In this document: positions 16,374 to 64,000 of the stretch, piece after piece
How the letters are laid out: each line of letters begins with the position of its first letter
How positions within the stretch are numbered: the first letter of the stretch is position 1
Source: Bilabrum cf. latius
Taxonomy: Eukaryota
Direction: 5' to 3'
Assembly (NCBI GenBank): GCA_965178125.1
Contig: OZ237741.1
Location: forward strand, 124,001 to 188,000
DNA: 64,000 nucleotides
The notes under the pieces: generated by a model
Seen by the model: only the letters and a program-made list of their open reading frames with translations
Databases searched by the model: none
Told to the model about the DNA's origin: nothing
Program-made: the position numbers and the translations under genes

Positions 16374-16508
16374 AGCTAGATATGCACGGCACACAAGGCC
16401 GGTGTTGTTGGTTCGCGCCGGTCGCTGGGTGCAGCGGAACCGGAACCAACAAGTTGCCAGTTGCAGTTGCCAGTGGCGCTGTGCGCCCGCCGGCGTACCG
16501 TCCACGAC

Positions 16509-18089: not shown

Positions 18090-18489
18090 GCTGTAATCAT
18101 GGTTTCGTTCGCCATATCAGTGTGTCTCTGGCTAGACAGAGCTGGGGCCGACGGTGGGGCAGTTGCACTTGGAAGGTGTGAGCAACGCGGTGGCCTGTAG
18201 ATCACTGCTGCTGTGTACTTGGAGACAAAACTTGGGGTGCTTCGTTCGCTGTCTGGTTCAAACACCGCTTCAACGCACCAAACTCATGCCCTGCAGGCAG
18301 TTGCCAGAATTCGTCCGACCGCAGCCTCGCCTCTCCAACCGATCAGCAGTCCGCCTGCGCCACTGCATCCATAATGCCATGTGACACGTGCCGACGACCC
18401 TGCTTCCGCCCCGACTGCTACTAGGCTCCTCTCTAGGATCACCAAGCCAACAGCATACCCTAGAATTCCCGGGTGCCCGCTCGCAGCAC

Positions 18490-19602: not shown

Positions 19603-19938
19603 GCTGCCTAGCTGCGACGAGATCGAGCGGTAACAGGTGCAAACAAGCAGTTGGCAACTGAAACTATGGTCTCTAGGCCTACTTTTTGAACAAACCAAAG
19701 CTACGCAAAGCATGGCGATTGTTGTAGGATCAATTCATAGAACGGTATCCGCAGACACGTTGAAAAGGACAAGCATAGCTCACAACCACGAAAATATACG
19801 CTTCGTCCCCTGACTGGTGTTCGATCCGATCAGAAATCTGTTTTGACCGCTCTTGCAATCATATAACGTTACATTATAATATGAACGTTCGTTTCGAGTT
19901 CGAATAGTTCCAACGATCAAATCACCAGCAAGGCCAAG
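19603..19938. promoter_or_regulatory. AT-rich divergent intergenic region (RPL6 / CFAP69), probable bidirectional promoter
   Basis: Head-to-head starts separated by 336 bp. AT-rich core with palindromic ATTATAAT between two AACGTT at ~19865-19889. Confidence 0.5.
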
Positions 19939-22900
19939 ATGGCCGGATCTGGATTTGACTATGATGATTTCGAACGGTTATTCGAAGACAAACATGCATA
20001 GTCATTGATATAGCGGCAGAGAGATGCTGTTGACGAGCTCCTGGATTGCAACAGAAGGGGCGGCTTCTACGTCTGCGAGCTTGATAGGGTTGCATCAGCT
20101 CTCTTGCTGCTCGCAGATAGAATTTCTGACGGGCACAGTGTTTTAATCGATGATCTTTGTCGCCTGTTGGACCTATCGACTCCCGTGAGTGAATCTGCAC
20201 ACGCCCACGCTTTGCGCTGCGCAACGGCAACTATTTCGCTAACATTGCCGCAGATGGCTGAAAAGCAGAGCAGCAGCGTATCAATTGCAGCACTTCAGAA
20301 CGCCTCCTCTATCGCAGTCGTATCGGACCGTCGCTGCGAACGAGGAAGAGACCCACCGCGACTGCATGACCGCCCTGCTGCGAGCCATCGGGGATCTCCT
20401 GGACGCCGGCGAGCCGCGGGTAGAGCTTGCGGCAGCCGAGGCGCTCTTCCGATTTCTTCGGGGCAGCCCCTCTCCGCAGCTTGACTCGGGCAGCAGCGAG
20501 CTCGGCACCTATTCCAGCTCGGCCGCCGAGATCCCCGGGCTGGGCCTGGCATCCGCGGAGAGGGCCGAGATGGCCGAGGCGGAGGTGAGGGCGCCCGGCT
20601 CCACGCACCCCACCAAATGGGAGCGAGCCCTGTCCCTCGCATGCTCCTCGGGCGCCGTGAAGCGCGTGTGCAGGGCACTGCGGCGCGAGGTGCGGGAGCT
20701 GGCGCAGGCCGACACGGACGGGGACGGCGGCGTGGACGTGGCCGAGTTCCTCCGGTTCAGGGCGCTCAATGACGGTGACGCGGCCAACGATGGTGACACG
20801 CTGGAACAGCTGGCCAGGGCGCAGGGGAGCACCGAAAATGGGGACGGGGATACCGGTGGTCAGCTGGCCCGTGCTGGGGGTCGGCCAGGCACTGCGGGCA
20901 CGGATGCGGGCGGTTCCGCGGGCGCCGCGCATCGCAGTGGGGAGTACTTTCTGGCAGTGATCATCCGTGTGGTGCTGGAGCTGTCAGAAGGCCCCGAAGC
21001 GGCCGCGGCGCTGTCGGCGGGAGGCGCCCCCGGCTCTCTTGTCAGGGTGGTGCACCTCGTGCACGACTGGAGGGACGCAGTGGTGCAGAGTGCCATGGAG
21101 GCGATGTGGAACCTGTGCGAACATTCGGCGTCCAGGGCCACCCAGGGAACAGCGCTGTCCCTGGGCGCGCTGCTCCGCAAGCACAGGGCACACAACGCCT
21201 GCTACCAGCTGGCCACACTCCCCGCCGCCCGCGCCCTTGCTCGACTCTTCGCTCGATCGCTCGCGGGGGCGGTTTCCGAGAAAGACAAGGCGCTCCGCAA
21301 CGACGTGCTAGTGCTGCTCCTGACCCTAGCCAGGTCCCCCGTGCCTCCCCGGAGGCGAACCAGGGTGCCTCCGGGGGCTGCGGCGGCCCACCGCCCGCGC
21401 TCGTCACATGTGTCGAGAAGGGACCGCGCGGCGCACGACGGTGCCACCCCCGATGTGTCCGTTGAGCTGTCCGGGGGCGCGGCTGTGGAGGGGGGCAGCA
21501 GCAGCCTATCTGTGCCTCCTCCGATGCCCGGCACGGAGGCAGAGTACGAGGCCGCCCGTGCGGGTGCAGGGGCTGGTGGTGCGCCCCGCTCGGGGGAGTC
21601 TTCCCCCGCAATGGGGCCCTCGGGGGCGGGGACTCCCGTGGGGTCCCTGGGGGGCTGGCGCGCGGGCGTGCCTGCCTCCCAGCTGCGGGCCACGGAGACG
21701 GCGCTGGCGCAGGCCACGGGCGAGGGGGCCGCCGCTGAGCTGGCCAAGGTGTCGGACGCGGCCCAGGGGGGGGAGGGCTGGGAGGCTCCCTCGGGGCCGG
21801 GGAGCAGTGCCACGGGGGACGGGCACGCGTCCCTGGCTGCCAAGTCCGGGCTGCTGACGCTGGTGCTGCACGTGTGCTCCGCCTGCGAGGCCGGGCTGGA
21901 GGGGACGGACATGCCGGTGGCTGGGTTTGAGGGAGTGATGCAGGACGAGGACGAGCAGGAGCAGGAGCGGGAGCGGGCAGAGGAGCGAAGCAGTGCGGGG
22001 ATGGGTGTGGTGCCCCCATTGGGGGGACAGGGACCCTAGGAACAGGAGGGATTCGGGCTGAGCCTGACCCCAACCGGGGGCCGGGGGAATTCCCCCACCG
22101 CCGGGGGCGCGGGCGGCCTGGCGACAATGGGCTCCGCAGGGCGAGCCGCGGACGCTGCGTGCATGCTGGCGGCGTGGGCGCAAGAGCAGGAGGTGTGGCA
22201 CGAGGGAACAGTGAGGGCCGAGCTGGCGGGCACCAGGGCCAGGAGGCAGGGGCTGGCGGTTCCTCGGCTGGAGGGGCGGAGGGGGGGCACGGGGGAGTTC
22301 TGGACTTCGAGTCCCGCGGACCTGCAGGCCAAGTCGCTGTGCTGGGCGCTTGCAGTGGAGTGCGTGCAGCAGGAGCAGGACGCCTTGCGGGCGGCGGCGA
22401 GGCTGCGGGAGGCGGAGCGGGAGCTGGCGGCGGCCACTGGGACGGGGGAGGAGCAGCCGGCTATCGGCAGCGGGCCAGGGAACAAGGGTACGGATGGGGA
22501 CGCGGACGCGGAGGGCATGCCCTCTCCACCCACCCACAACCCCGGGGCGACCGACGGCGACGGCGACGGCGGCACTCCTCAGCAGCAGGGCGTGGATCGG
22601 GGTGGTGAGGATCTGGGTGGGGATGCAGGGGCGCGGGACGCCGGGTTTGGCGGACTGGACGAGGGCAAGCAGGCAGGTGGGGGGGAACAGGGAATGCTCG
22701 CGGGGACGATGGCCAGCGAGGCGTTCGGGCAGGAGGACCTCGGCGCGGCGCCGCTGGACCCGCAGGATGTTCCGGAGGCGGAGGGCGGTCCAGTCTTGGA
22801 GACGGTCCGCAAGTCTTTGCTGCTGCACGGGCTCCTGACGCACCTCGAGACACCCGCGGAGGGACCCCAGGACAGCGACGAAGAGGACGAAGACGAGGAG

Positions 22901-25510
22901 ACGAGGTTCGGTATGGTCGGGAATGGGGGCCGGCAGCAGGAGGGCAAAGGTGACGACACGCTGGCCCTGTCCCGGCCCTCCACCTCGGGGGCCTCCCAGG
23001 GCCTGGGCCAGGGCATGCTGGGGCACCCCTACTTGCTCTCCCTCAGCGCGGGGGCCCGCCGCCGGCTGCAGCTGCACGCCCTGTCATGCCTCCACAGCCT
23101 GGCTCCGCTGTCCATGCGCGGGTTTGTGGAGGCAGGCGGGCCCGCGCACTGCCTGCAGCACCTGTACCACTGGGCGGCGCCCCTGCGCCGGGCAGCACAG
23201 GCCCTCCGTGAGGGGGCCCAGGAGGAAGCGAGGGTGGCGGCGCAGGCGGCCGCGCGGGAGGGGGAGGGAGAGGCCGAGGCGGCTGTGCTGGCCGCCACTG
23301 CCGCCGCCCTGTCCCTGTCCATGGCTGCTGGGGCGGGGGCGGGGCGGGCCTCGGGTGCGGGTGCGAGAGTGGCTGCCCGCCGCGGGTCCGGCGGCCTCAG
23401 GATGGCGGTTTCTTATGCTGCACTCGCGGATCTGCCGCGGGTGCACATGTGCGTGCGGCTGCTGCAGCGGTGCTGCCAGACTCCCGCGGGGGGCCCGGCC
23501 GTGGCCCGATACATCGGCATGGACGGGGCGTGCGCGATGGCCGCTGACGTGGCCATGGGCGCGTTCGCTCTGGTGGCAGGCCCCAGAGCGGGCCGCGTGC
23601 CCAAGGGAGGCCTTGATCTCAGGGGCATCCCGGCCTCGGCCGTGGCGCTCGAGTCCGAGATCGCGGGCGATTCCGGGTCGCTGCCCGGGCCCGAGTGCGG
23701 CGGCACGGTGCCCCCCTCCCTGCTGCTCGAGGCCTCCCTGTCTCTCGGGGAGGCCCTGTGTGCCCCGGGGAGGAGCGACCCGAGCGTGGACCCGGCGGGG
23801 CACGCCACCGCCAAGGCCCTGGCGGAGCAGGAGCTCGCGGGCGCCGCGCATGCGGAACCGCTAGCGGGGTGCCAGGCGTGGATGCGGCGGTCGGGCGGCG
23901 TGCGTGCCGCGGTGCGGGTGCTACGGTGGGACGCCGCCCGGAGAACACGGGCCGCCAGCCGTGCGAGAGGCGGGGCCATGCGGGCGGGCGCTTCTGCCGC
24001 CAGGGAGGCGCGGGGCCACGACGCTCTGCTGCAGTCCACGGCCACGGGGCTCGTTGCTGACGTGGCGCCCTCCGCGGGTGCGGCGGCGAGGCAGGGCGGC
24101 GGGGGCGCCGCGCAGGAGGACGGTCCGGAGCAGGGACCCGGCGGCGCCGGTTCCGCAGAGGACCCCTCCGCCGCCGCGGCGCCGCGCCCGGCCCTCGCCG
24201 CCGTCGCCCTCCTGCGCGCGGCCACGGCTCGCTCCCGCCGCGGCGTGGCCCGTGCCCTCGCGGAGGGCGCTGCGGACGCGCTGCTGGACGAGGCGGAGGG
24301 CGCGCCCCCCGCCCTGGCGGCGGCGTGCCTCGGGTGCCTGGCCGACTTGGTGAGGGAACACCCCGCGGCCGCGCTGCCGCACCTGAAGGCGTGGTGCAGC
24401 GACAGCGACGGCGCCCCGGCCCTCGCGGTGCTGACCCGGCTGTGGAGGAGCGAGGAGACAAGGCTCGGGGTGGCGAGGGGCCCGCACGGAGAGATCGACC
24501 TGGGGTCCTTCCCCGATTCGATGCACAGGCCGCTGAGCGTGGGCACCGGGAATGGATCGGGGGCGGGGGCAGCGGGGAGCGCGACTCCGTCGCTGGGTGG
24601 CACTGGCGTGGGGGCCGGTGGGACTAGGACCGGGTTTGCTCTCACCTCCGGGGGTGGTGGCGGTGGTGGTGTGGGGGGCGGTGCAGGCGGCGTGGGCTCG
24701 GCATTTGGGCGGCTGCGCGACGCCCTCCGTGCCTCGAAGCTGTGGGCGGCCGCAGATGGGGGTAAAGCCGGCGCGAACGGGCCGGACGGCACGAAGTCCG
24801 GTCCGGAGCAGCAGGGGCGGGCGGGCACGCGGGCCGCCGGGGTGCGCGCGGCAGCAGAGGCGTTGGCCCTTCGTAGCGGAGCCGGGTCTGGCCTGCGGGC
24901 CGCGGTGTGGGCCGTGCTGCACGAGTGCATGGAAGGCGAGGTGCGGACCGGGGCGCTGGGGGATGTGGGTGGCCTGCCTCTCAGCGATCGGGTGGCGCTG
25001 GAGGCGGCCATGTCCATGCCCCGGCTGGTGGAGGCCGAGGCGTGGTGGGGCGTGGAGCACGCCCTGAGGGGTCCCTTCCTGCCCGAGCACCTGAGGGTGC
25101 AGCCCACTGCGGAGGACGAGGAGACTCTGAGGGCGGCGCTGGGGCGCGCCGAGGAGGCCGTGCGGTCGGTGGCAGAGGCTTAGGCTGCCGTGGTGGAGGC
25201 GACGAGCGTGGCCATCGCCCGTCAGGACGAGCGCTTCCAGGAGCAAGTGCTTAACCGGAAGCAGTGCACGGAGGACGGGGCGGCTTTGTCTCTGCGGGGG
25301 AGGAGAGCCCCTGTGCCTGCGCTGACGGGGAGCGAGCGGCGCGCGGCCAAGGCGAGGAGGAGGGCGATGCTCGAGGCGGCCGAGAGGCCGGTGGGCGTGC
25401 GTCCCTTTAAGGCGGGCGACGGGGTGCCGGAGCTGGACGTGGGGCAGGTCAAGGCGGAGATGGCGGCGAAGAAGGAAGCCGCGACCATGGGAGGCTCCAG
25501 AGTGCTTTGA
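19939..25510 (+). CDS. CFAP69: Cilia- and flagella-associated protein 69 (~1810 aa; intron 20185-20317; 4 in-frame TAGs)
   Basis: N-terminus 'FDYDDFERLFEDKHA*SLI*RQRDAVDELL..GFYVCELDRV', then 'AMEAMWNLCE', 'KDKALRNDVLVLLLTLA' and 'LGCLADL..HLKAW..LTRLWRSEETRLGVARGPHGEI' match recalled CFAP69 motifs. TAGs at 19999, 20011, 22037, 25181; TGA 25508-25510. Confidence 0.8.
20185..20317 (+). other. Putative intron (133 bp)
   Basis: CCC|GTGAGT ... CTATCGCAG|TCG joins two CFAP69-like segments that are in different frames. Confidence 0.7.
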
Positions 25511-25646: not shown

Positions 25647-26285
25647 ATGTACGCCGGGCAGAAACGTCAATTTGGCGGAGAAGGGCAGGAGCGGAACTAG
25701 TGGCGGCGTACAAACCGAGGAAGGGGTCGCCAGCAAGGCGGTCGGGGCGGACGCGGAGGCGGGCGCGGACGAGGCCGAGGCCGAGGCCGAGGCGGCAGGA
25801 ATCGAGGACCCAGGCCACCAAAGCGGCCGTATGATCCCCCAATTGCACCTAATACTTGGGTCACTCTATCTGCGTTGGAGAATCCGTGGGAACGGCTGGA
25901 AACTGCGATTGGATTGCCACCAGAGGTGCCGGACCTACGTCCCAGTGCAACTGCGCCTGCGGTTCAGACTGGAGGGCCTGCATCGCAGGCTTCAGGCCAC
26001 CAGCCGAGCGCCGCAACTAGTAGTGTAGTGTAGGTCGAAATGTCCAGTACATCTCCGAGCAGCGCAGCGATGGGCAGCCCCCCGCCAGCGGCGGCTGCAT
26101 CAAGCTCGTCTTCGTCTGCCTCTGCAACCGCTGGTCCTTCGCGCACAAAGTTGGTTCTGCCGCCCCCAAAGTCACAAGCATTACCGAGCCAAGGGGTCTC
26201 CATTGGAGTGGCCGGATCTGGGATAGCGAGCGCTCCACTGGTGCCAAGTGTTAGCTGTGAGGGCCAAGCCGATGGCGTGACATGA
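25647..26285 (+). CDS. RGG-rich 212-aa protein with an MPLKIP/TTDN1-like 'ALENPW' motif; 2 in-frame TAGs (25698, 26031)
   Basis: GCCATG start; '[84 protein letters not shown]'; TGA 26283-26285. Only its 3' tail appears in the ORF track. Confidence 0.6.
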
Positions 26286-26332
26286 ACTGCAAATTGCCAA
26301 AACACGGACAAGAGGGAGTACAAATGCATCAA

Positions 26333-29300
26333 TTACTTTCCAGACAGCTTCTTTGTAAGGTAGGGATCCGCGCTGATCTCCCTCACTCCCGGCCGCTCTC
26401 TCTGGTCAAAGGTCAGGCACCGTCGGATAAAGTTCTGGGCCTCCTTGGACACGGCCGGCTTGCCCGGCGGCGGGAACTCCACCGACCTCGCGTTAAGGAT
26501 GACCTTATCCCTGTAGATCTGCTCCTGCGTCTACCCCTCTCCGAATGGCCTCTTCCCGAAGAGCATCTGGTAGAAGATCACGCCGAGCGACCACACGTCC
26601 ACCTTGTCACTGATCCTCGGGGGGGTGGGCCCGTGCAGCTGAAAGCACTCGGGAGGCAGGTACCAGTACGTCCCTGCACCCTGCGAGGTAAGCTCCATGC
26701 TCGTCATTTCAGAGGCGTGGTGCTGCTGCCGGGCCGCCGCCAGCACGCCCCCGTCCCTGCCTGGGCTGGACCCCGCCCCTGCCGCTGCCCCGCTTCCAGC
26801 AGTGGCTCGCGCCCTCTGCCCCCTATCCTCGAATATCTTGCTCAGCCCGAAGTCCGTCACCTTGACCATCCTGTCGTCCGTCAGCAAGATGTTCGCCGGC
26901 TTTAGGTCGAAGTGGATCACCCGCCGCCCCTGCAGCTGATCCGCCGGCGGGATCACCCCGCCACCGTCAGCACCCGAGGCCTAGGCCCCCGAGGCCGACA
27001 TGGACGTGCCCCCCGCCCGCACCCCCGCCCCCGCCCGCTCGCTGATCCCCACGCTGATGCCCCTTTCGATGTGCGTCCCTGGCGCGATCTCCCCTTCGAT
27101 CCCTTGTTCCCCAGGCGACATCATCATGCTGGCCAATGGGATCTCCACAGCGTCCAGACCCGCCCCCTGACCCGCTTCCACCCCGATCCCCGACCGCGCC
27201 GCGCCGCCCAGCCCCGCCCGGCCACCAAATCCCCCAGCCCCCCCAAACCCCGGCGGGCTTGGGGCCCGCATCGCGCCCATGGCAGGGCTGCGGGCCGAGT
27301 CCTCCGCCTGTCCCTGTCCCTATCCCTGTCCCTGGGCCTGAGACTGCCCGGCACCAGCAGTCGGACCAGCGGCAGCGGACGACGAGGACGAGGACGAGGA
27401 CGGTGCCCCGCTGGCTGCTCCCCTCCCCTTGCCCCCCTTGCCCCCCTTGTCGCCCCCCCGCGTGCTGCGACCCCCCCGGGACACCCGTCCCCCTGTTGGG
27501 GTCGAAGCACGCTTGGCCTCCGCCGCCAGGGCCAGCGACTCGTCGTACCCCCCCGCCCCCCCGAAGCGCCCCACCTAGTTGAGGTACCTGAGAGCCGCGA
27601 GCACCTGCAGCACGATCGTGCGGGCCTCTCTCTCCGGTAGTGTCCTGTGCTGCTTGAGCAGCCGGTCGAGATCTGTGCCCCCGCAGTATTCCAGCACGGT
27701 GGCAAACGCGTCGTTGGATATCTCGAAAACGTCGTGCAGCTCCACGATGTTGGGGTGCTTGAGCTGCCTGTGGATCTGGTACTCCCTCGAGGCGTGCCTG
27801 ATGTAGTTCTAGCGCCTGTCCTCGTTCCACTGCTGCGAGAGCTGGTGCACCTTGACGGCAACCTCCGTGGCGGTGTGCAGATCCATGGCCCTCCACACCT
27901 CGCTGAAACCCCCCTTCCCGAGCAAGCTCATCAGGAGGTACCTCGTGTGCAGCACGGGCCTCGGTGCGAACCTGCTCTCCTGCTCGTCCCTGATCCGCTT
28001 GGTCTCGCGCAGCAGCAGCTGGTGCTCGGACAGCAGCTGCTTCTTCCTTTCCTGCAGCTTGGCGTCTTCCCTCTTCAGGATCGCCTGCTGCACCCTGCAC
28101 TGCTCGTCCTGCTCCGTGTGCCGCAGCTCAGCCAGGACCCGCTAGTCCACGCTCAGGCCCGGGATGCTGGCGGTGAGGCCGCCGGGGAGGGAGGCCTCCC
28201 CGGCGGGAGTGGAAGTGTCGCGCCCTGCCCTGCCCTGCCCCACCAGCCGAGGGGGCCCGCCGGGCACGGAGCTCATCCCGACGAGGCTCCCGGACATGGA
28301 GGCGTCTGTCATGTCACCGCTGTACCTGTCACCCGCAGGGCTGGGCCCCACGTCGGATCCGTCCCCGCTTGCAGCGGAGGAGGACGCGAGCTTGCTCTTG
28401 CTCTTGCCCCCTCCCTTGCTCTTGAGCGCCCTGCTGACCTTGGTGATTTCCTTCCTCCTCTTATCCAGCTCCTCCTTCCTCCTCTGCAGCTCCCTCAGGT
28501 CTGCCCTAAGGTCCCTGAATGCCTGCCCCTCCTCCCAGTGCTGCACCACCTGGGAGTGCATGCCCATCCCGGAGCGACGGGCCACGGACCGGCCCAGACG
28601 GTACTGCTTCTCGGAGAGCGCCCTGAGGCTCTCCCTCATCTCCTGGTCGATTACAGTGCGGACCAGCCGCTCCAAGTTCCCTGCCAGCCGAGCTGTCTGC
28701 GCCCCCTGTCGGATGCGCTCCTGCTCCAGCTGCCCCTCGGTGAGAGCCGCCCGCTGCCCCGCCTCGTCTCTCTCTCTCCGCAGCACCCTCAGCTCCTCCT
28801 TGGACCTCTCCAGCTCCCTGTTCCCGTCCTCCAATCGCCGCTTCAGCTGCTCCGCCTCGGCCCGTGCCTCGGCCAAGGCCCGGCGGGTGGCATCGGGCGA
28901 CACCCCCCCAGGCTGATGCTGGCTCCCACCGAAACCGCTCTGGCTCCCGCTCACCGGCGGCCCCATCCCGCTGCCCCCCGCGAGTCCTACAGAAGAACCG
29001 CCCCCTCCGAATCCGACCGTGGTGACTCCGCCGCCGCTGCCACTGCCGCTGCCGGCACCGCTCATCCCGCGCCCAGACACCGCCTGTAGAAAGAAGCTCT
29101 CCGCTTTCTTTGGGCCGCCCGGCGCCTCACCCTCCCCATCACCCCCGTCGCCGTGGGCTTTGTCCTGCCGGCCACCTGCCCTGGCCCCGCCCTTGGCGCC
29201 TCGACTGGCTCGGCCCGCCTTGCGCTGGGGCTGGGGCTGCTGGGTTGGGCCACCTGCCTCGTCTGCTCCCGAGGCACCACTTCCTCCCGTGGATGCGGAT

Positions 29301-29911
29301 CGCTTGGTGGTGCGGCGGCGCCTCGCCGCGGGGGGGCCTCCCTCGGCGTCTGCCGCAGAGGGAGGCTGCGCGGATGCGGGGCTGCCAGCTGGCTCCGGCT
29401 GGCTCGAGGATGGGCTGAGGGCAGACCGTCCTCGCTTCGCGCCGATGCGGGCGGAAGTTAGCGGGCCATTACTAGCGTTCGGTTCGGTGACTGCAGTCCC
29501 GTCGGATTGAGCAGAGGAGCCCCTTTCTAGGGCAGATGCTCGCGATGATTCAACCCGCGCCTGCTGATCATCCGGGCCAGACTGCACAGCGCCCGCTCGG
29601 CCGCTTCCGCCGCCCTATCTATCGCTGCCAAGAAGCACCGCCCCGCTAGATCTCGCAATTGGTGCCTGTACGGCGCCTGCTATGCTTCCCTAGCCGGCTC
29701 CGCCCGGCTACCCATCCAACACTGCCTCTCTTGCCAGTGAACCAAGGGCTACGGTGCTGCCAGCGGCAGATGTCGCTGGAACGCTACAGGATGGAATTAC
29801 AGTATCGTCATCAGGGTGATCTTGCCCTGCCATTCGCGCTTCTAGCCGGCGCAGCGTCCCGGCTGCGTTCACTGGTTGAGATGAGGCCGCAATGCTACCT
29901 TGCCATGACAA
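26333..29911 (-). CDS. TLK: Tousled-like kinase (start uncertain); 9 in-frame TAGs
   Basis: N-terminal '[10 protein letters not shown]', coiled coil, '[28 protein letters not shown]...[12 protein letters not shown]', '[12 protein letters not shown]', 'VTDFGLSK', '[19 protein letters not shown]', '[32 protein letters not shown]', '[18 protein letters not shown]'. TAGs at 29708, 29690, 29615, 28142, 27809, 27575, 27320, 26981, 26531; TAA 26333-26335. Confidence 0.92.
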
Positions 29912-30273
29912 TTAAAGAGATGAAGTCTTGCAGCATCGAGGAAATCATATATGCCAATTATAATGCACGACTTACGGGATGGTACGTGTTTGTTGGAGCT
30001 CATCGTGACGCGAAACACGAAATCGAACGGTGTAAATCACCTAGAACTCCAATGTCTCCTCAGTCGCCACGCGGGCAAGTCTTCAACCCGACCGACTACT
30101 TGCTGAGTATATAGTTAATTTAGTTGATACGGTCCGCCAATCGTCTACTCCAGCGCGTAGAAATTCTGGTGGGATCGACCTCACTCGGCGAGACTGAATT
30201 GGATCGGGCCCCGGGTGACGAGCAGATTGGATCCCTCGGAGGCTGTCAGAGAGAGTCCAATCGAACCAACTCG
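29912..30273. promoter_or_regulatory. AT-richer divergent intergenic region (TLK / TTC7-like)
   Basis: Head-to-head gene starts flank a ~360-bp drop in GC. Confidence 0.4.
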
Positions 30274-33200
30274 ATGGCGAGGAGAGACCACGGCTACGAA
30301 AAGATTGATGCCTTTAGGCGAGAGGGCCGCTGGAAAGATCTCGTGCCGCTGGCAGATGGAATCAAGTCAGAGCAGTCGAGCGATGCGCAAGCTTTGGCGT
30401 TTCGTCTCACACTTCTGGCCGAGATGATCCTCCATAAGGTCCCAGCCTAGTACGGTCGATCTCTATCTGCGGCTGCACTGGACTAGCTGAAGCAGGCGCT
30501 GGTTGCTTCTCCGATGTTCGAGGTGAGCGCCGGTCGAGCAAGCGCAGTACGCCTAGCACCATGCCTGCGCTCATCTCCGTCCAACAGAGCCGCTACCTGC
30601 ACGTTTCTTGGCTTACCTATCGCAGGATGCCGTTGCCCTCGGTGTACTGGTCGCGTAGGCCCGACTGATCAAGTACGAAGGAGCAACTGCTGGAGCGTCC
30701 TGCATTCCGGTGGACCAACCGACCAGGCGTCGTCTCGGAGGGAGGCATGCACGACCAGATAACTTTCTTCCAGCATGCAACACTTAGCATACTCGCTGGA
30801 CCCCCCTTGCTCATGCCTCCCGGCCGCGCACTGTCTCTGCAGCCGGTGCCGCAGTGGCGGCCAGCGTGCTGCTTCGAGGCCTCAGGACCGTCTCCTCTGC
30901 CACCGCCTCGTCGACATCGACATCAGCGGGTCCAGCGGCCCATGCAAGCACTCCCGCGGACCCCGTGCCGCTGCGCTCGTGCTACCGCCGGCGGCTCTGG
31001 TCCCAGGCCATGCTCGCCTGCGGAGAAGCGCTTCTGCTCGAGGGGATCTTCGGGGGCACCGGGGGCGGGGGAGGACCTCACGGCCGGGGCGACGGTACTG
31101 CAAGTGGTGGGTAGGGGATAGGTGGCGATGCAATGCGCAGAGAGGATAGTCCGACTGCCTCGCCGTCTGGTCCTAGGGGCGGCGAGGGCAAGGGCGAGGG
31201 AAAAAGCAAGGGCCAGGACAAGGGGGCGGACAAGGGGAAGGGGAAAGGGAAAGGCAAGGAGGGGCGCGCGCCTGGTCCGTCTGGTTGTGCCCTGCTGCAG
31301 CTGCTGAGGATCAGCGGCGTGATGAGTGCCGTCGGTCTCCACGATGATGCTAGTGCTGCAAGGCCTGGACCGGATCGTGTGGGCGTGTCCTCGTCCTCTC
31401 CTTGCGGGCTGCGGCTTGATGTGGATGTGAGGGCGTGTTTGGGTGGCGGTGCTAGGGGCAGCCAGCGGGCGGTGCTTGCAGCGCAGGCGTGTGCTGAGCT
31501 GGGCATGCGCTGCCTGGGGGCCGTGGTGGAGGCCCAGGCCGCGTTCGGGATGCAGAAGCTGGAGCTGGGGGCCGAGCTTCTGCCCAGGCTGATGGCGCGA
31601 GGGGCAGGTGGTGACACCGGTGGTGCGGTGGATGGAGTGGAGGAGGAAGGGGGGCGGTATCCGCCAGGCAGGGAACAAACAAGGGAACAAGGGGTGCGCC
31701 CGGGTGCCCACACAACCAGTCGGTCCGCCTAGCTGCAGCTCACTGCAATGCACGCTGCGAGGATGCTGGAGGTGGCTGGAGCCGACGCGGCGCGAGCCGT
31801 GCTGGATGAGGACCCGCCGAGTTACGCTGCCCTGCTGGCTGCAGGGTGCAGCATCGTGTCGGCGGCCAGGTCGTGCGGCAGCCATGCTGCCTCAGCTGCC
31901 GCTGCATCTGCCCTGCTGTCACCCGCTGGCATGCTCTCCCCCCTGAAGGAGCCAGCCGCCGGCACCACGGCGCGTCAGACGGCAGTCGCGGTGGGCGGTG
32001 CTCGTCTGCCTGCTGCTCTGCGTCAGTAGATAGGGGGCTGGTGCTACGTGTCCAAAGCAGGCGTGCCCATGGCTGTGTTCGACTGTGACCCGGGCAGCTT
32101 TGGCGGGGGTACGGATGCGGGGAGTTGTGCTACAGCGTGGCCGCGACTTTCTGCCTTTGGCTGCGCGGGGAGAAAGCACGGGCCCGGGTACGGCCCAGCT
32201 TGTCTCCTTCGCGCGTTGCTCGAGGACGAGGACGGGACTTCCGATCGAGATGCAGGCGAGCGCGGGGGTGGAGGCTCGCGGGCGGCAGGTACTGGGAACG
32301 ATCTTGTGGCTCCATCGACGAGCGAGGAGACTGACAGCGTCGACGTTGAGGCTTTGCTGGGCCCGGATCCCGCGTCGGCTGTGTTCGGGCCTGAGCTGGC
32401 CACGATGCTGCAGGCGGTGCGGTTTCCCATGGGTGGGCATTCGTTGCGGAGGCAGCTGCGCGCGAGGGCAGGCGAGCGCGAAGGCGAGCAAGACACGGCC
32501 AAGAAAAGCAGCGAGGGGGCGGGCGGCAAGAAGCAGAAAGACAAGAAGGGGGGTGGGAGGGTGTCGGCTGAGAGCAGATAGGGTGGAGAGCTCGTGTTCG
32601 TGGGCAGGGCCATGGGAGCGGCGGTGGTGATGCAGCCTCCCGACCTGTATGCTAGTGCGGGAGGTGGGCATCCTGAGTCAGCGGACGGAGAGGGCGGCGA
32701 CGATGGCGGTGCGAGCGGGGCAGATCGGCTTGCCCTGCTCGCAGGTGGGTCAGACGGCGCTGCGTCCTCTTCAAGCGGTTGGTTTGGTGATGGACTGGGC
32801 GACCGCATGAAGCAGGTGTTTGACCAGGCAAGGGGCAAGCAGCACGGGCTGGAGGCGTACACCGCCCCTGTGTGGCCCCCTGTGCACTCGCTGTGGGCGG
32901 TCAGAGCCGCCCTGCGAGCGACCCTCGACGGCGAGCCAGAGTTCGGAAATGCTGTTGGCGGGGGCGGCGGGCAGGGGCTAGCGAGTGGGCAGGGTACCGC
33001 CTCGGCCGAGGGCGAGGCGGGCAGCGGCAAAGGGGGCGGGCCAGCTTCCTCCAGCGGGAAAGCTGGGAGCGGTTCCTCGGCTAGCAGCGATGCCACTGCC
33101 AAGCTCGACTCGCCGTGCGGGGCCGTGATCGAGGCGATGCTGCAGGCAGAGGCGGTGAGCGCCCTGGCAGCAATGGCGCGGGAGGCCTGTGTGACGAGAG

Positions 33201-36169: not shown

Positions 36170-36259
36170 CCGAGGCACCAGCGCAGCCCACTAGTGTTTG
36201 AGAATCTTCTATCAGACCTGCCAATGCAAACCGTTAGATCAAAATCGCTTTCCTCAAGT

Positions 36260-37579: not shown

Positions 37580-37798
37580 GGGCGATAGCGCGGTGTGCCG
37601 GAACGCCCGCGTTTATCCGAACAGCAGACGGGAAATACTGTCTTGCTGTGCAACACAGCGGTTCCAATTGAGGCAAATCAGTGCGAAAGTTGCATGGTGT
37701 GCTCGGCAAGATCCGGAATCCAGATCCAAAGTTGCAGCGGACCAACCGCACACCTGAAAGGAGACTAGTCTTTCGAAGGCAAGAAGATTACACCAACC

Positions 37799-56359: not shown

Positions 56360-59300
56360 TCAAAATTCATCGGAAAGAACGATCGGCACGAGCTCCCCCG
56401 AAGTTGCAGCGGCAACCAGAGCATGCTCGCCCACCCACTCGACCGCCCGCATGGACGAGCCCTGGCAGTGGGTTGCAACCGTGTCGCCCGACCGGACGTC
56501 CACCACGGACAGCGTGCCGTCCTCCGAAACGGTTGCAACCAAGCGACCGCTGGGGCTGGGGCGCACGCACCACGCGATGTGGTCGTGCACGGCCACCATG
56601 CGATGCCGAAGACGCCGACCCCTCGCCACCGGGTCTCGGTCCCCGGAGCCCGCATCTCCAGCCGCACCCTCTCCCCCTTCCTGGTGCTGCTCCTGGTCCC
56701 ATTTCCATAGCCCCACCGCCCCGTCCCTCCCAGTTGACACCGCCACCTCGAACCCCGCCCCTTCCCCGAACGATGAGGCACGGCTGAGTCGAGCGACAGC
56801 GCCGGTCCCGCCGGCAGCAACACCCGAGCTAGCAGTGCTCTCTGTTGATTCCAAGCGAGATAAGGCGGGGCCACGGGCTGGCCCCACCTGCGGATCTGCC
56901 CTGCCCGTCAGTACAGGGGACGAAGGGCCAGAGGAGGGCGGCGAGGCGCTCGGGCTGGGAGGTGCTGGAAGGGGCACGCCCTGGCCCGCGGGGGCTGCAG
57001 CGGTTGTGGCAGAGGTGGCCTTCTCGGGTATAACGGCGGAAGCCTTAAGCGCGCCGGCCCTTTGCGTCCCTTCGCTTGCGCCAAGGCCTGCTTCCCCGTG
57101 CACACCCAGCTATGCTGTTGTTTCGGTCTCAAGCGCGCCCCACGCGACCGATCTCACGAAACCCTCGTGCCCGCTCGTCACAACTGCAGGGAACAATGCA
57201 TCTGGCCCCGCGCCCATTTCCTATCCGATCCCGTGCGCCGCGGCGCTGTCTCCAGCAGCAGCAGCAGCAGCACGCTGCAAAGGCCATATGCTCATGCGTC
57301 CGTCCGCACTGCCAATCGCAAGGGCCCGCCCACTCGGGCTGAATTGCACGTCGCGTATCTGTTTCCCACCATGGTGCGGCCGCGCATCGATCTCGCCCAG
57401 ATCAAGCAGGCGCAGGCTCGACTAGTCCTCAGAGTCACCTCCACTGGCACCATCGGACCTGATTGAGACAACGCAACGAAGCAGCACCTTCCCGCATGTG
57501 GAGGCAAGGGCAGCGACAGCTAGGACATGACTCCCATCTGCAGTACCCACAGCATGCAGCGAATGCCCGAGCGATGCGGCCAGCTCGGCTGCAGCCAGGC
57601 CGCACAGCACGTCCCCGCCCACCACGCCGCCGTCCAGCCTCCACTCGTGCCCGACAAGCGCTGGTTCTGGTTCGCTCCTTCCCTCGCCATCACCCGTCGC
57701 CTCCGATCCAGCTGTAGCCCACAGCGAGATGCAGCCTTCGGGGTACCGGAGCTCGCCGTGCTTGGCGCTGGACACGCACCACCCCGCTGTAATGATGCCT
57801 CGCAGAACCCCGCCTTCCTCTCCACCAGAGACGCCAACAGTACCTCCGAATGGCAGTGCTATGTAGGTGCTGCCAGGCCAGTGTGCGGGATCCCCGGCGG
57901 GAGCTGTGACCGAGGCTCCGGCAGCGGTGCGAGCTGAACCGTCCGTGCCAATGAGCATCGGGGACTCTCCACCTGGTGCATGGGCGTGCTGCCACAGCGC
58001 AGTGACGCTTGCGGGAACCAGCATCCGGTGAGCGCACCGCATTTCGATCGCGCTGCCTGTGCCAGCCGCCATGCCGGTCTCTAATCGCCTGCCGAGTTGC
58101 CAGACCTGACACTCTTTGCCTGCGGTCAGCAGTAGCGTGTTTCTGGTCTCCCCGAAGGCCCGCATGCTTCCGACCAGACAGCCCGCCCCGGGCTTGCTCT
58201 CAATTGCGGGAACCATAGTCACAGTCGGGAGAGCACCCCGACCTTCTTTGCTCCTGCCACCACCCGCGCTCTGCTCTGACGGGCGGGTACCTGCTCCTTG
58301 CGCTCCGCTCAACGCATCGTCCAGCGCCCACAGCCGACAAGACGCATCGCCGGACGATGTCACAGCCCGCAAGCAGCCGGCCTCGTCACGCAGGGCCTTC
58401 ACCCCGGTGATCGTGTATCCATGCCCCTGCAGCACGCTCAGAGGGGCGCCGCCCGCCATGGAGTACACGACAAGCGCCGATTCACTGGGCTGTGTACCGG
58501 CGAGGAGAAGCCCACCCGAGGCAGTGCCGTCTCCAGGGCCTCCTTCCACCACTTCCAGCGATATCAAAGCAGAGGCGCGCGGCTCGAATCGAGAGGAATC
58601 ATCGACCGCGAGAATCATTGCCCCGTTGTCCTCCTTTGTGTGGACCGACAAGACTCCGAGGTAGCCCATATCGCCCCCGGCAGCCAATCGCCCTGACGCT
58701 CCTGCGCCACCAGCTGACCCGATATCAGCAATGCTGAACGCCCTGCCGTGCCCGGGTATGTCTGGCTTGCACGAGGCCAGGACAGCCCCTGTTGCCAGGT
58801 CAAGGATCGCCACGATTCCGGCATCGCCGGCACAAGCAGCCAGACCTCGCTCGCCGGCCCCTCCCGCCTCGCCAAGACGGATGCTGCAGAGGCCACGGAC
58901 CGGCCGACCCTGTGCTCCAAGTTCCCCACTGGTGGCAACCCACCGCGACTGCATACGCAGGCAGAAGCTGTCCGACCCCGGGAGCCCATCGAGTCTCAGC
59001 TGCCAGAGGCCCACCTCCCCAGTCGCAGACGAGGCCAGGATTCGATCCCCTGGCAGCGGCAGAATGCACACGAGGCCGACCGACCGGTGGTCAGTCCATC
59101 GGCGTGTCGGACGGTACCCCCGCCCCGCCGCATTGGGGAACAATCTGGCCGTAGTGCCGGTCACGGAGACATCGGCGTCCATTGCCGCAGCACCGCCCGC
59201 GGCAGAGTCAACCTGGATTGGCACCAGGTCGCGATTCTACAGCGACCACGCAGCGATAGACCCGTCTCCACGGCCCCCGAGGAACAGAGACACGCCAGCC

Positions 59301-62300
59301 CCAGCCCCAGACCCGCCAAGAGACAGCACAGAGCTGGCTCCGCACTGCCAAGTGCCGAGATCTCGCTCCGACAGCAGCGCCACTTCGCCCACCACGTCAT
59401 CTGTGCCCTCCTCCTCCAAAGGGACCAACCGCCAGGCCTCTTGTCCGGCACTCCGCCCATGTCGAGCTGCCAGCTGCTAGGCCTCCTCAGCGCATACCTT
59501 GGGGGGCAAGGCCAACTGGCCCTCCCGCCGCAGCGGACCGATGCTCCAGACCGTCGCGGTACCGCCGTCTGTCAGAGACACGAACCCGCTAGCGGCGCAG
59601 GCGGCACTGGCAGACCTGCTCCCACTGATCGGGACCCGACCGACGGCACGCACCCAAGCAGAGGATCGCGCGGGCGCGACGCCCTCGCAGAACGAGGGGA
59701 CGGGGTCACTGAGGCGGAGGGCCAGCCGAGTGCCAGCCCGGGCGCGGAGCTCCGCTGGCAGCGACGCTGCAACCTGAGGAAACACTGATCCAGCAGCGTC
59801 ATCGGCAACCTGCACCCACGGCTTGCCATCGGATACCGCATGTGAGGCGGCCTGTTCCAGTGCGCGCCTGATTGCGCTGTCGCTCCCATCGTTCAGGCAC
59901 GTCTGCACAAATAGCCACGGTCGTCTGGCCAGATCGGCAGCGTGCCGGGCCAAGAAGCCGGCCCATGGCCGCAGCGCCCGAGATGCGGCCACAGGATCAG
60001 ACCTGCTCTGTTCCCCGGCAAGGGTCCAGAGGGAACTGCGTGCACCAGGGTCGTCCGACCCCGCGCCTCGCAGCGGCTTCGTGCGCGTCCACGCCTGCCA
60101 TGCCTCGGGCAGGCCCGGGGCTGCTTCCGCCGCACTTGACACTGCGGCGGCACCGGCGGCACCTGCCAGTCTGCTTGCTTCCGCGACCACGCGCGCGGTC
60201 TCCCACGCCGCAGCCTAGCCAGAACCGACAGACGCTGCCAGGAAGGACGGCCGCGCGAGGCACCGCGCCAGCTCGCCCCACCACCCCAGGCCCATCAGCA
60301 GCCTGGGCAGAACCGACACCTTCCTTCCGTTTGGAACTGCACTCACACGCGTGCCCTCACCTCCCCTCTCCCCGGTCCCCGCGCCGCTGCTAGGACCCAT
60401 GTCCCCAGCCAGCCTCTACCGCCCGGAACGAGAGGCTGAAGAACTGTCCAGGAACCAGTCCGGGCTCTCTGCGATCATGCGTGACGGAAACCAGTCCCTC
60501 GCCAGGCCGCTTAGACAAGCCGCGAGCAGCACGGCAGCGCGATACCGCATCGTGCCCTGCACCGCTCGTTCGGCGTGCGACGCACATGTTCCACTAACGC
60601 TCGGCCCAACAGCCTCCACCGCACCACTCTGGTGCCTCTTGATTTCCTCAACCACCATACCCACCGACCCGAGCTCGTCGTTTGCATCTGCATCGGCCAC
60701 GGACCAGCCCAGCAAGCTGTCCTCGCAGGCAGTCTCCCACAGCAGGCGGTGGTGGAAGCAGTGCACCGGTGCTCCCCCGCTGCCCTCCCTCTCTGCTAGG
60801 AGGGCACCCATCGCCTCCAGCATCCGCACCAGCACCAGGTGCGGCAGGCGCCTGGTGGGCGGGTGGTGGTACTGGTACACGCGCTCGAGCAGCTCGTCGT
60901 CGAGGCTGAGCGCATCCAGCATCTCCTTTTCACTCACGCCGTCCCCGAACGGCCGAAGCGCGATGAGAGACAGGGCAAGGAAGGTAAGGCCGCGACCATG
61001 GTAGTGGGCCACGTGCGCCACGTTGTAGCGGTAGGCAGCCTCGATGGACGCGGGCAGACGAGCCACCTCTGGCGCGGGATCCACGCAGCTCCAGCTGGCG
61101 CCAATGCCTGCCAGCATCGCCACTAGCAGCGCGGCGGGGTTCTATCCCCCGCTCTGAGCCGCTCCAGCAATTGCGCTAAGCTGCGTGGGAGTCAGGTCTC
61201 GCCTGCGCAGAAAGAGCGTGTCCTTGATCGAGCGACGCACGATGGCATCGCCGGTGGTGTGAGACAGTAGCAGCGGCGATGCTTGCATGGCATGCACCTC
61301 TCCGCCGGTGCCATCTCTCTCGCCGGGAGCGGCGATTTCACTGTCTGCGCCTGCCACCCCCGCCCCCGAGGCTGCTTCTTTCGCGGCAATCTCAACGGTT
61401 GAGGGCACGATAGTGTCGAGCACGCCGCTTCTCTTGAGCTCTCTCACGCAGCGAGGCTTCTTGCCTCCCGGAGCGTCCGTGAGGCAGCTGATCACCATGC
61501 GGCAGTGTTCGGGCAGCTCCGAAGGCACCCAGCCAAGCTCCATGAGCACCTCCGCGCCGGCCCCGCCCACGTCCTGGGCCCCGTCATCCGCCGCCTCCTC
61601 GGCGAGCTGGTCCACCGAGTCGACGATCAGCACTGTGGGGTGCTCGGCCGTGGACAGATCCATGAAGCCCCGAAGCGCTGCGGCGATCTGCGACGGGTTG
61701 CCCTGCCGTGCTGCGGCAGCCCAGGCCTTGACCGCCGATGTGCACGACTGGCGGTACATTGAAGCGCCCTCCACCTGGAGCCTTGGGTCCGCTGCCCGCT
61801 CAAATCCAGGCAGCAGCCCGCATCGCATGGATACAGCACACGCAAGATGCGCCGCCAGGCCTCCCAGCAGGGCACGGGCAGTCGAGGTGGATGGACCAGT
61901 CCCGCAAAACCGAGCGGCCACCACGCCGCCCACTGGCACCCCGGCAGCCAGGCCGAGAGAGCTGGCATCTGCAGCGTCCAGAGCCGCCCTGGCACGCAGG
62001 GAACAAGCCGCCAGGAGGGCAGACTTGCCCGTCCCTCCCGGCCCCACGACCACCAGGGGCTTGTTCCCTGGCACAGGAGCCGCTGCAGGAGCGCCCCACG
62101 CGCAAACGCCCGGCACAAGCCCCCCTTCGCCTCGGGCCAGAGCGCCTGTCGCGCTGCGCATGAACTGCAGCAGCGCCCCTTGTTCCCTGGCTCTGCCCAC
62201 CAGCACCTGCGCCCTGCCTCTGGCAAACTGGTGCGCGCCGATCACGTCAGCTGTGACCCGAGGCAGAGCTGCCTTGACTGCCGCTTGCCATGCCGATAGT

Positions 62301-64000
62301 CGCTGGGCGGGTACTACCCTGGGCATCGATGCAGCCCCACGCTCCGCCAATGCGCTCACCGGCTGGTCCCCCTCGGACTTGGGCCCTGCCACCTGCCCGC
62401 CCCCGTCCCACCACTCGCCCGCCTGTCTCCTCTGCTCTGTCCCAGTGAGGTGCCCCAGCACCCCCGGGGCCACTCCCGCCTCTCTCGCCCGCCTGCCCAC
62501 CTCTTCTCGCAGAGCTCCTTCCAGGCTTACGGCCATGTCGGCGGCCAGCTGCAGCAGATACCCGGGGTGCGAGTCCACTCCCACGGTCACCGGAGGCAAG
62601 TCACCTGCCCCTGCACCGGCACCTGCACCTGACCCTGACCCTGCACCTGCACTCGCCAACTCTTTGTCCTATTCCCCACTCTCTGCTTGCTTCTCCGCCT
62701 GATCTTTCAGATACCGCTCGCTTCCACGCTCTGGCTGTCCAAACTGCACCTCATACCGGTAGATGCAGTCATGGTCGAACAGCCCGCCGACCCCTCGGTC
62801 TGGGTACCCCTGCACGATGGCGCGCAGGACGGCCAGCCGAGCACTGGAGTCCTCTCGGTCCGCTGCCCCGTCCACGAATCCTCGGCCTGTGGCGGTGTCC
62901 TTCCCCGTCAGCGTGTCACCGTTGGTCAGTGTCCTCACGAATGCGAAGCGGCGGCGGGCGTCCCCCTCGGATCCGGGGCCAGAGGCCGCATTCTCGGCCG
63001 ACTGCACCTGCGCTGCCCGTATGACCTCTTGCTCGGTCACGGAGCTCTCCCAGACGGTCTCCAGCGCCTCCAAGTCGGGCGGGATCACCCGTGCTTGTCC
63101 TGGCCGCAGGGGGTGGGGGCCGACAGCTGGGAGGGCACCGGCGGTGGGCCGGCCCTGGTGGATCCGCAGAGAGGAGCGCACGCTTGCCAGCAGCGCGCAC
63201 TGACGGTCCCACCAACGATTGCTCTCCGCGCGAAAGTGAGACACATCGGATCCAGTGGCATCTTCCTGGGCCGGTTCTGCAGCTACCAGTGCCGCGACTA
63301 GTGCCGAGTACTCCTTCATCGTGCGCAGGCGGTACCGAGCTGGAATCACGTTCGACTCCAGCACATAGCACGCGTCAAGATTTTCTAGAGCATCGGGACT
63401 GTCTCTGCACGCAGCCTTCGTACGGCGCATTTGTGGCAGCGATAGCTCTGGAGGCGGTGCTCGATACCCCGACCGCGCAGTCTAAAAGAACAGAAAGTAA
63501 GGGCCCGTGCTCGTCTACCTACACTTGTCAATCTACTCAAGGCACAAATTGATTGTTTGGTGATTCGCAGTGGCTTCATTCCGTATGCCCCAGCGCATGT
63601 CGCACAACAAAACGGTGAGACCCAGCGATCTTGCGGCTCTTGACAGGTAGGGCTCGACTAGCTCCATCATCGCGTGCCGTTCGCTTTTGGTGTCCACAAA
63701 CGTACTCGATGAGAATATTCGTACTACGTTCGTTGTCGGAGACGTAACGTTAGAGGCTCGTTTGCCCGCTAACCACTCTTGCGAAGCGACCGTGGTGTCC
63801 GATGCATCGGGACTGAGACCCGAATCCCGCGCCTATTGGCGCTTTTCTCGCAAGCGCTGACGAGCTTCTTCAATGGCGTGAACCCATAGTGGATCATCAA
63901 TACTATCTGGGATGCGAGCAACTCGCATGCTGCAAAGATATGCGTTGCCCTTCGGGGAAGCTTCCCCTTGTGAAACCGGAAGAACCGTCCGAAACCGCCG
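56360..64000 (-). CDS. DUF4062-NACHT/STAND NTPase-WD40 protein (NWD1/NWD2/TEP1-like), 5' end may lie outside the window; 13 in-frame TAGs
   Basis: 'VRIFSSSTFVDTKSERHAMM..CDMRWGIRNEATANHQTINLCLE*IDKCR*TSTGPYF', 'SSVTEQEV', Walker A 'GPGGTGKS', Walker B 'VLIVDSVDQL', 'LSLDDELLERVYQYHHPPTRRLP', and multiple WD40 repeats (e.g. 'LQGHGYTITGV..VTSSGDASCRLW'). TGA 56360-56362. Confidence 0.85.

Follow-up and report, generated by a model that had tools for sequence, protein, structure and literature searches.

In-frame TAG codons of a Tousled-like kinase gene point to UAG as glutamine, with UAA and UGA as stops, in GC-rich nuclear DNA

Changes of the nuclear genetic code are rare, and those that give UAG and UAA different meanings are rarer still. 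The code in which UAG means glutamine and both UAA and UGA terminate follows what we take to be the pattern of NCBI translation table 15, and the code in which UAA and UAG (together UAR) both mean glutamine is presumably that of table 6. Reassignment of UAG alone to glutamine, with UAA kept as a stop, is described in PMC11687900 for the fornicate Iotanema spirale, the ciliate Protocruzia tuzeti and two phyllopharyngean ciliate lineages, and the nuclear lineages which that source names as having different meanings for UAG and UAA make up a handful. UAR is read as glutamine in many ciliates and in Dasycladales, Cladophorales, Trentepohliales, Hexamita, Streblomastix and Amoeboaphelidium (PMC11687900, PMC8271138); UAG alone is read as serine in Scotinosphaera (Ulvophyceae), with TAA and TGA as stops (PMC8271138), and as leucine in an uncultured rhizarian (PMC11687900, PMC8271138). 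Here we analysed a stretch of 64,000 nucleotides of eukaryotic DNA (contig OZ237741.1 of assembly GCA_965178125.1, positions 124,001 to 188,000; hereafter the window, with position 1 as its first letter), in which a gene for a Tousled-like kinase (TLK) on the minus strand carries nine in-frame TAG codons.

The window is very probably nuclear DNA of a GC-rich, intron-poor eukaryote in which UAG would be read as glutamine and UAA and UGA would remain stops; as part of this same reading, the TLK gene is very probably intact and transcribed, and its nine TAG would be ordinary minor glutamine codons. The pattern is the one of Iotanema spirale, Protocruzia tuzeti and the phyllopharyngeans, namely that UAG only is reassigned, to glutamine, and that UAA and UGA terminate. 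The window differs from the ciliates with this code in that two thirds of its bases are G or C and in its long, intron-poor genes full of low-complexity inserts; the ciliate cases have lower GC. With the UAR-to-glutamine codes it shares a stop codon read as glutamine and a likely origin in a glutamine tRNA with an anticodon one base away from CUG or UUG.

The TLK gene was recognized from the minus-strand frame 29911..26333, the translation of which comprises 1192 codons with nine TAG inside, no internal TAA or TGA, and a TAA at its end. Pfam Pkinase matched this frame at 2.2e-55 and human TLK2 (PDB 5o0y) at 2.8e-101, the next solved kinases following at about 6e-25. In the homolog search 8000 candidates were scored, 2004 of them had E ≤ 1e-10, and the best 120 were aligned (121 rows with the query); the functional names, where present among these best 120 of 2004 matches, were all TLK or TOUSLED. 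The query keeps all 53 invariant columns of the 121-row alignment, including the GxGGFSEV glycine loop, K687, HxDLKPxN and DFG, and a 'LEAR' motif near its N-terminus matches the TLK consensus of the same alignment. Residues 9-192 of the query piece align unbroken to residues 225-408 of 5o0y, including the stretch ahead of the kinase domain, which we assume to form a coiled coil in the known TLK2 structure. The predicted protein belongs to the Tousled-like kinases, and kinase activity, with ASF1 as a possible substrate, is predicted from the family. Like human TLK2 (5o0y) and plant TOUSLED, it carries its Ser/Thr kinase domain, which bears HxDLKPxN and DFG, behind a coiled-coil region and closes with a short tail (seven residues past 'DPYL', the median being six in 120 TLKs). 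TLKs from across the eukaryotes are 50-62% identical to it in the best local alignment.

The coding sequence runs on the minus strand from 30003..29976 to 29862..26336, followed by the TAA stop codon (26333..26335), with a single intron of 113 nucleotides (29863..29975, GTAAGT...CAG). The joint 29862^29976 (CT..AC on the plus strand) was found in one contig each of the public sequencing runs X5, X6 and X7 and in none of run X1. Within the exon covered by contigs (30153..29976), the first ATG is that at 30003-30001, and the splice keeps the frame; we infer this ATG to be the start codon, which gives a coding part of exon 1 of 29976..30003. Coding exon 2 (26336..29862) comprises the N-terminal low-complexity region, the coiled-coil region and the kinase domain, and holds all nine in-frame TAG. 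The C-terminus in front of the TAA is shared with relatives, two database proteins (P0279 and P0280) ending identically to the window TLK ('...KLSGK').

Compared with other TLKs, the window protein has a long low-complexity N-terminus (accounting for part of a frame of 1192 codons) and longer spacers within the kinase domain. Between 'YLN' and 'VIHFDLKP' there are 220 residues in the window TLK, versus six in 87 of the 121 rows and 30-42 in the nearest TLKs, and the spacer of the activation segment after 'DFGLSK' (26700-26830, minus strand) measures 48 residues versus 12-14 in most TLKs. The first of these spacers contains a low-complexity kinase insert of about 215 codons (26930..27574, minus strand), which is coding and not an intron because blocks of it are conserved in P0279 and P0280, the latter aligning through it at 96% identity. 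An intron at this place, with the GT after the TAG of 27575 and an in-frame AG before 'GRRVIHF' as its borders, was considered and rejected on account of this conservation at the protein level. In each of the four runs compared, a short GAC/GAG-rich repeat at 27365-27411 draws many incomplete contig matches and spurious joints, and its motif seems to recur in many genes of the genome; joints with sides of 20-25 letters around 27380-27405 were disregarded as low-complexity repeat artefacts.

UAG is sense across the window. In a pooled set of 13 coding frames delimited by TAA and TGA we counted 81 TAG, 0 TAA and 0 TGA in 18,521 codons, the absence of in-frame TAA and TGA being partly by construction; the frames are supported independently by their domain content, their lengths (up to 4003 codons) and contigs. 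The two off-frames of the same DNA contained 187 TAG, 57 TAA and 543 TGA in 37,042 codons. At the off-frame rate of 543/37,042 a random frame of 1192 codons would hold about 17 TGA, so that TGA and TAA, unlike TAG, are kept out of the TLK frame. Under the standard code the 15 longest open reading frames (ORFs) add up to 10,904 residues; the sum doubles to 22,379 when TAG is taken as sense, compared with 15,235 when TGA was taken as sense and 11,066 when TAA was. The TAGs fall inside Pfam-matched domains (kinase, DUF4062, ARM) and between invariant kinase motifs. Counted as a glutamine codon, TAG makes up about 10% of the window's glutamine codons (CAA 105, CAG 654, TAG 81), in DNA of about 66% G+C overall (59-75% in 2-kb windows).

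Contigs of four public runs (X1, X5, X6 and X7) were compared with the window over 26200-45200, contigs being the only material used. Run X1, in which a single contig spans 26200-45200, is perhaps where the window comes from. Runs X5-X7, which belong to two studies, gave gene-sized contigs letter-for-letter identical to the window and hence no inter-strain substitutions at TAG codons, and the skipped intron together with the gene-sized contigs suggests that these three runs are RNA. Record 9 of X5 joins 30153-29976 to 29862-27588, is identical to the DNA over 27588-29862 and keeps five of the nine TLK TAGs unchanged and unspliced. Contigs covering 36232-37566, 37794-39949, 40042-41817 and 41889-45136 are likewise identical to the window DNA, and the sole difference of X1 and X5-X7 from the window among the listed places is a G>A change at 42798, outside the TAG codons.

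These contigs bear on the idea that the TAGs are not translated at all, but represent sequencing errors, pseudogene decay, cryptic introns or sites of RNA editing. The standard code does break the TLK frame nine times, and the GT that follows TAG 27575-27577, with the insert in frame, has the look of a splice site. We nevertheless regard the idea as scarcely credible: 81 TAG against no TAA and no TGA in the pooled codons is not a picture of decay, X1 and X5-X7 agree with the window DNA as described, the intron-skipping contig keeps its five TAGs unedited and unspliced, the kinase insert is conserved as protein in two relatives, and a related metagenome contig, L001, shows the same TAG-only pattern (see below). 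A sequence-only reading of the window, which preceded this analysis, had likewise described the gene as not decaying and its catalytic motifs as intact; both statements agree with the 53 conserved invariant columns, the intron-skipping contigs and the TAA at a C-terminus shared with relatives.

That reading had flagged two of the nine TAGs, at 26531 and 27809, and had proposed from a comparison with TLK sequences that UAG is glutamine. Both codons were found on the minus strand (26533-26531 and 27811-27809), in one frame and in the TLK context described for them. The TAG at 26531..26533 (residue 1127, kinase C-lobe, 'FGKRPFGEG[TAG]TQEQI') faces Q in P0280 (local identity 20/20), P0281, P0283, P0284, P0002, P0003 and P0004, and R in P0279. 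The TAG at 27809..27811 (residue 701, kinase N-lobe, 'WNEDRR[TAG]NYIRHA', inside X5 record 9) faces Q in P0279 (local 16/20), P0281, P0283, P0002 and P0003, and A in P0284 and P0004. The broad TLK alignment that had been proposed as a check (n = 240 TLKs) gave Q as the commonest residue in both columns: Q 144, L 49, M 22, K 15, C 4, R 3, V 2 and H 1 at 26531, and Q 97, A 82, E 15, R 13 and S 12, plus rarer residues, at 27809. The residues given in that reading, Q at 26531 and a human E at 27809, were borne out by human TLK2, which has Q, E and E opposite 26531, 27809 and 27575, respectively.

At the start of the kinase insert, the TAG at 27575..27577 (residue 779, 'YLN[X]VG') faces Q in P0279 ('YMNQVG', local 15/20) and K in P0281, P0283, P0002 and P0003, in a family column without preference (n = 240; K 61, E 46, T 28, G 19, S 19, Q 17). 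Near the end of the insert, the TAG at 26981..26983 (residue 977) faces Q in P0280 (local 18/20) and, at a poorly aligned place (6/20), G in P0279. The TAG at 27320..27322 (residue 864) lies within a (GGA CAG)n Gly-Gln repeat, as GGA CAG GGA TAG GGA CAG GGA; no relative aligns there, and the repeat gives a weak hint at glutamine. Just before the coiled-coil region, the TAG at 28142..28144 (residue 590, inside X5 record 9) stands in a variable column, with R in P0002, P0003, P0281 and P0283 at low local identity. The remaining three (29708-29710, 29690-29692 and 29615-29617; residues 68, 74 and 99) belong to the N-terminal low-complexity region, all of them inside X5 record 9, and at their positions 120 TLKs show mainly gaps or varying residues. 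A TLK peptide spanning an in-frame UAG would read '...RPFGEGQTQEQIYR'.

The strongest evidence for glutamine comes from the comparison with close relatives. P0280, 96% identical to the window TLK over 292 residues, has Q at both of the TLK TAG sites that it covers (26981 and 26531). P0279, 71% identical over 483 residues, is well aligned at three sites, with Q at two of them (27809 and 27575) and R at the third (26531). An exhaustive search with part of a second gene of the window, for a NACHT/WD40 protein, yielded short ORF fragments from near relatives; one of these, P0126, is 97% identical to the window product and has Q at the TAG 61142-61144 of this gene, so that relatives at 96-97% identity have Q at three of three TAG sites. 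This second test gene (56360..63997, minus strand; DUF4062, AAA_16 and WD40 domains; 13 TAG) runs off the window. The ORFs of P0125 and P0126 both stop exactly ahead of CAG codons of the window, and P0125, P0126 and P0128 are database fragments that end or start at TAG positions. From these protein fragments we infer that the relative at 97% identity carries TAG where the two ORFs end, the gene caller having stopped there; to judge by these ORF ends, it would use TAG in the same way as the window.

An ortholog of the NACHT/WD40 gene is carried by the metagenome contig L001 (14,041 bases, 56% G+C). L001 has frames of 2652 codons with 20 TAG and of 1250 codons with 17 TAG, compared with none above 417 codons under the standard code, and this relative uses in-frame TAG in the same way as the window. 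The 17 TAG belong to a hybrid histidine kinase (HATPase_c and receiver domains; L001 positions 1178-4930, plus strand), and downstream of the NACHT/WD40 ortholog lies a GH39 gene fragment (12890-13732, plus strand). Synteny between L001 and the window was not found beyond NACHT/WD40, the neighbours being the hybrid histidine kinase and GH39 in L001 and syndetin in the window.

The two NACHT/WD40 genes were aligned codon by codon, giving 33 TAG sites (13 in the window and 20 in L001), four of which fell in gaps. A site was called well aligned when it had at least 50% identity over ≥ 13 flanking pairs, and 16 sites (six of the window, ten of L001) were of this kind. TAG paired there with Q eight times, with R twice, and with H, N, E, K, G and A once each. 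Half of the TAGs were thus opposite Q, and ordinary glutamine codons of the same alignment pair with glutamine at a frequency of 0.43. Log-likelihoods, calculated with each amino acid's substitution pattern in the same window-L001 alignment, were -33.5 for Gln, -45.8 for Lys, -48.4 for Asn, -50.0 for Glu, -54.3 for the background, -82.1 for Leu and -88.5 for Ser, so that over the 16 sites Gln is ahead of Lys by 12 units and of Ser by 55. As far as sequence comparison reaches, these results show a meaning of UAG that fits glutamine and no other residue, and the sequence-only assignment is supported by the close relatives, the TLK family columns and the codon-level ortholog comparison alike. Summed log-odds over 12 family columns were positive for Gln alone (+10.2), with Glu at -3.8, Ser at -10.2 and Leu at -12.0; one of the TAGs of the L001 histidine kinase, at the 'F..Q' of the ATP-lid, faces Q in three of five solved kinases.

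The other two stop codons behave differently from UAG. In L001 we counted CAG 67, CAA 56, TAG 37 and TAA 0 in 3,904 codons, with about 31 TAA expected if UAA also meant glutamine; TAG makes up about 23% of its glutamine codons, TAA occurs 51 times in the off-frames, and the GC content of third codon positions is 0.51-0.55. In the window, in-frame TAA is likewise absent, about 13 being expected under the same assumption. Four of the 14 listed frames end in TAA, TLK among them, and ten in TGA; of the 13 pooled frames, nine end in TGA. The ribosomal protein eL6 gene (18490-19734, minus strand; at least two exons, the C-terminal exon being 18493-19038) has a TGA stop that coincides with the end of the Pfam Ribosomal_L6e profile (1-111/111), and no TAG is present in the exon parts read. 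The 3' end of the TDP1 gene is a weak test of TAA, since its TAA is followed eight codons on, within the contig, by an in-frame TGA. Taken at the level of codon counts and predicted gene ends, these data show that UAA and UGA are not sense and remain stops.

A code in which UAA and UAG both mean glutamine, with UAA merely rare in a GC-rich genome, is very improbable. This is by far the commoner variant, according to PMC11687900, and TAA is indeed rare overall in the window DNA (116 and 103 on the two strands). L001, however, uses CAA nearly as often as CAG and yet has no TAA against its 37 TAG, the window lacks the TAA expected of it and has frames that end in TAA, and taking TAA as sense barely lengthens the ORFs. 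It is in this absence of sense UAA, in the window as in L001, that both depart from the UAR-to-glutamine codes.

A further possibility is that UAG is dual, meaning glutamine inside genes and acting as a context-dependent stop at some gene ends, to be compared with Condylostoma, karyorelict ciliates and, for UAA, Blastocrithidia. The ARM-repeat gene ends in CTA TAG TCA TGA (46988-46999, minus strand), with a TAG two codons before the TGA that could be either its last glutamine or its terminator; moreover, the pooled set comprises 13 genes only, and ORFs defined by TAA and TGA would hide TAG terminators. On the other side, no gene of the window needs TAG for its expected C-terminus, TLK ending at TAA and eL6 at TGA, and TAGs of TLK reach to within 65 codons of the stop and are then followed by conserved kinase subdomains. 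We consider a dual role unlikely, though less so than the other alternatives discussed here.

By analogy with other UAG-to-glutamine lineages, a glutamine tRNA with the anticodon CUA would decode UAG, and eRF1 would have lost efficient recognition of UAG. UAA could have stayed a stop because a CUA anticodon pairs with UAG and not with UAA. An argument based on a CUA-tRNA and eRF1 has been made in PMC11687900 for other lineages with UAG-only reassignment. The eRF1 gene is not in the window.

Several observations weigh against the reading of UAG as glutamine or against the data that carry it. No tRNA gene was detected in the window or in L001 by ARAGORN or Rfam, nor any other Rfam family. The pooled frames owe part of their lack of TAA and TGA to the way in which they were delimited, runs X5-X7 are taken to be RNA from the skipped intron and the gene-sized contigs, and no listed contig piece of these runs covers 26200-27587, the part in which the kinase insert and TAG 26531 are located. 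As for the residue, eight of the 16 well-aligned ortholog sites pair with something other than Q, and 13 poorly aligned low-complexity sites pair with S (4), L (3), G (2), T (2), A (1) and R (1). In the NACHT/WD40 family (145 homologs) the column of the TAG at residue 155 has E 129, with Q second at 10, and that of residue 172 has L 109, with Q second at 9; a third column, of residue 161, is variable (R 39, K 29, E 15, Q 15). The TAG of the CDK-like gene faces E, E, D, D and D in five solved kinases, and one TAG of the L001 histidine kinase faces Ser in three of four. The sequence-only reading had named dominance of the TAG columns by Glu, Leu, Tyr or Trp as an outcome that would tell against glutamine; this did not occur in the flagged TLK columns, which are led by Q, nor in the 12-column sum, but it did occur in the NACHT/WD40 columns dominated by Glu and by Leu.

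Such columns are what favours a sense UAG with another meaning, be it Ser (the meaning in Scotinosphaera), Glu (that in Blastocrithidia and one ciliate), Leu (that in the uncultured rhizarian) or Lys. For serine there is a published precedent with UAG only reassigned and TAA and TGA as stops (PMC8271138). The window shares with Scotinosphaera the nuclear reassignment of UAG only and the retention of TAA and TGA, and several TAGs stand beside Ser runs in low-complexity regions; inspected by eye, the surroundings of the TAGs showed no enrichment in Ser or Gln. Nonetheless, another residue is quite improbable: at the well-aligned ortholog sites Ser and Leu each occur at 0/16 and Glu at 1/16, all log-likelihoods fall below that of Gln, the 96-97% relatives have Q throughout, the TLK column of residue 1127 is without S and without E among 240 sequences, and the 12-column log-odds favour Gln alone. 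A UAG-to-serine code of the Scotinosphaera type was rejected on the basis of the 0/16 ortholog sites, of 0/240 at TLK residue 1127 and of a log-likelihood of -88.5 versus -33.5 for Gln, and the TLK tree, a single-gene FastTree and hence weak on this point, sets the window apart from green algae.

This tree was built with FastTree from the conserved columns of 90 of the 121 TLK rows, after removal of 31 near-duplicates from plants and animals. In it the window falls among environmental sequences, with a labyrinthulomycete and brown algae as neighbours; green and red algae, plants and animals lie elsewhere. Coming from a single gene, this placement is weak. The nearest TLK relatives outside the group at 70-96% identity (P0002, P0003, P0281 and P0283) are uninterrupted ORFs of 448-879 residues, and their organisms may use the standard code, which would set limits to the time of the code change. 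In view of the uninterrupted ORFs of P0002, P0003 and P0281, the change may be recent and datable within the clade.

UAG-only reassignment to glutamine is a known kind of code, found here in what appears to be a new, non-ciliate lineage, and the variant seems to be unreported outside ciliates and one fornicate flagellate. Our literature search returned no report of it in a GC-rich or stramenopile-like lineage, and unsearched papers may exist. We give about even chances to the proposal that a clade of non-ciliate flagellated protists, for which the single gene suggests a stramenopile affinity, independently reassigned UAG alone to glutamine, and that this clade comprises the organism of the 66%-GC window, the relative at 96-97% identity seen as protein fragments and the distant 56%-GC relative seen as a metagenome contig. 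Should this be true, the code would be the first of its kind in that part of the eukaryote tree, and its occurrence in a GC-rich genome would run counter to the usual idea that stop-codon capture follows from AT pressure and stop loss. With its high G+C content and with relatives at three distances (97%, about 70% and about 50-60% identity), the lineage is well suited to studies of how UAG alone is captured: an apparently independent, GC-rich and non-ciliate case with sequenced DNA and transcript-like contigs would allow the change to be dated, eRF1 and tRNA-Gln to be compared before and after it, and an origin of UAG-only capture in a CUA-tRNA to be tested. In practical terms, the standard code, if used to annotate this genome or its relatives from metagenomes, will fragment most long genes, and such fragments are already in the database.

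Besides TLK and the NACHT/WD40 gene, eleven further coding frames of the window have TAG as their only in-frame stop triplet. An open frame of 4003 codons with 14 TAG occupies 1179-13190 (plus strand); it matches no Pfam family, and its product, in which Glu, Asp, Ser, Gly and Ala abound, may be one giant low-complexity protein. It is followed on the minus strand by GH59 (13410-16508, 1 TAG) and the CDK-like kinase (16509-18116, 4 TAG), and, past eL6, by a CFAP69-like gene on the plus strand (20243-25510, 2 TAG), all three being Pfam assignments. Next to TLK lies a domain-less gene (30527-36169, plus strand, 10 TAG). At its 5' end, a GT..AG stretch of 103 nucleotides (30521-30623, plus strand) is skipped in contigs of X5 and X6, and therefore the first in-frame TAGs of this gene may be intronic or untranslated.

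A trefoil protein is encoded at 36260-37612 (minus strand, 3 TAG), and Pfam matches identify an AidB-like acyl-CoA dehydrogenase (37799-39940, minus strand), an MGAT4-like gene (40095-41735, plus strand), TDP1 (41940-45104, minus strand, 7 TAG), the ARM-repeat gene (46988-49726, minus strand, 6 TAG), for the protein of which only two distant matches were found, too few for column counts, and syndetin (49875-55589, minus strand, 3 TAG). On the minus strand at 45752-46987, a short Arf-family match (frame residues 298-335) breaks off, with two adjacent TAG upstream of it, and this is probably an Arf-like gene of several exons with unmapped introns. The 3' untranslated parts seen in the contigs are very short (5-82 bases). 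The contigs of the AidB-like (minus strand) and MGAT4-like (plus strand) genes start about 93 bases apart, head to head (39949-40042), which suggests a very short shared promoter region.

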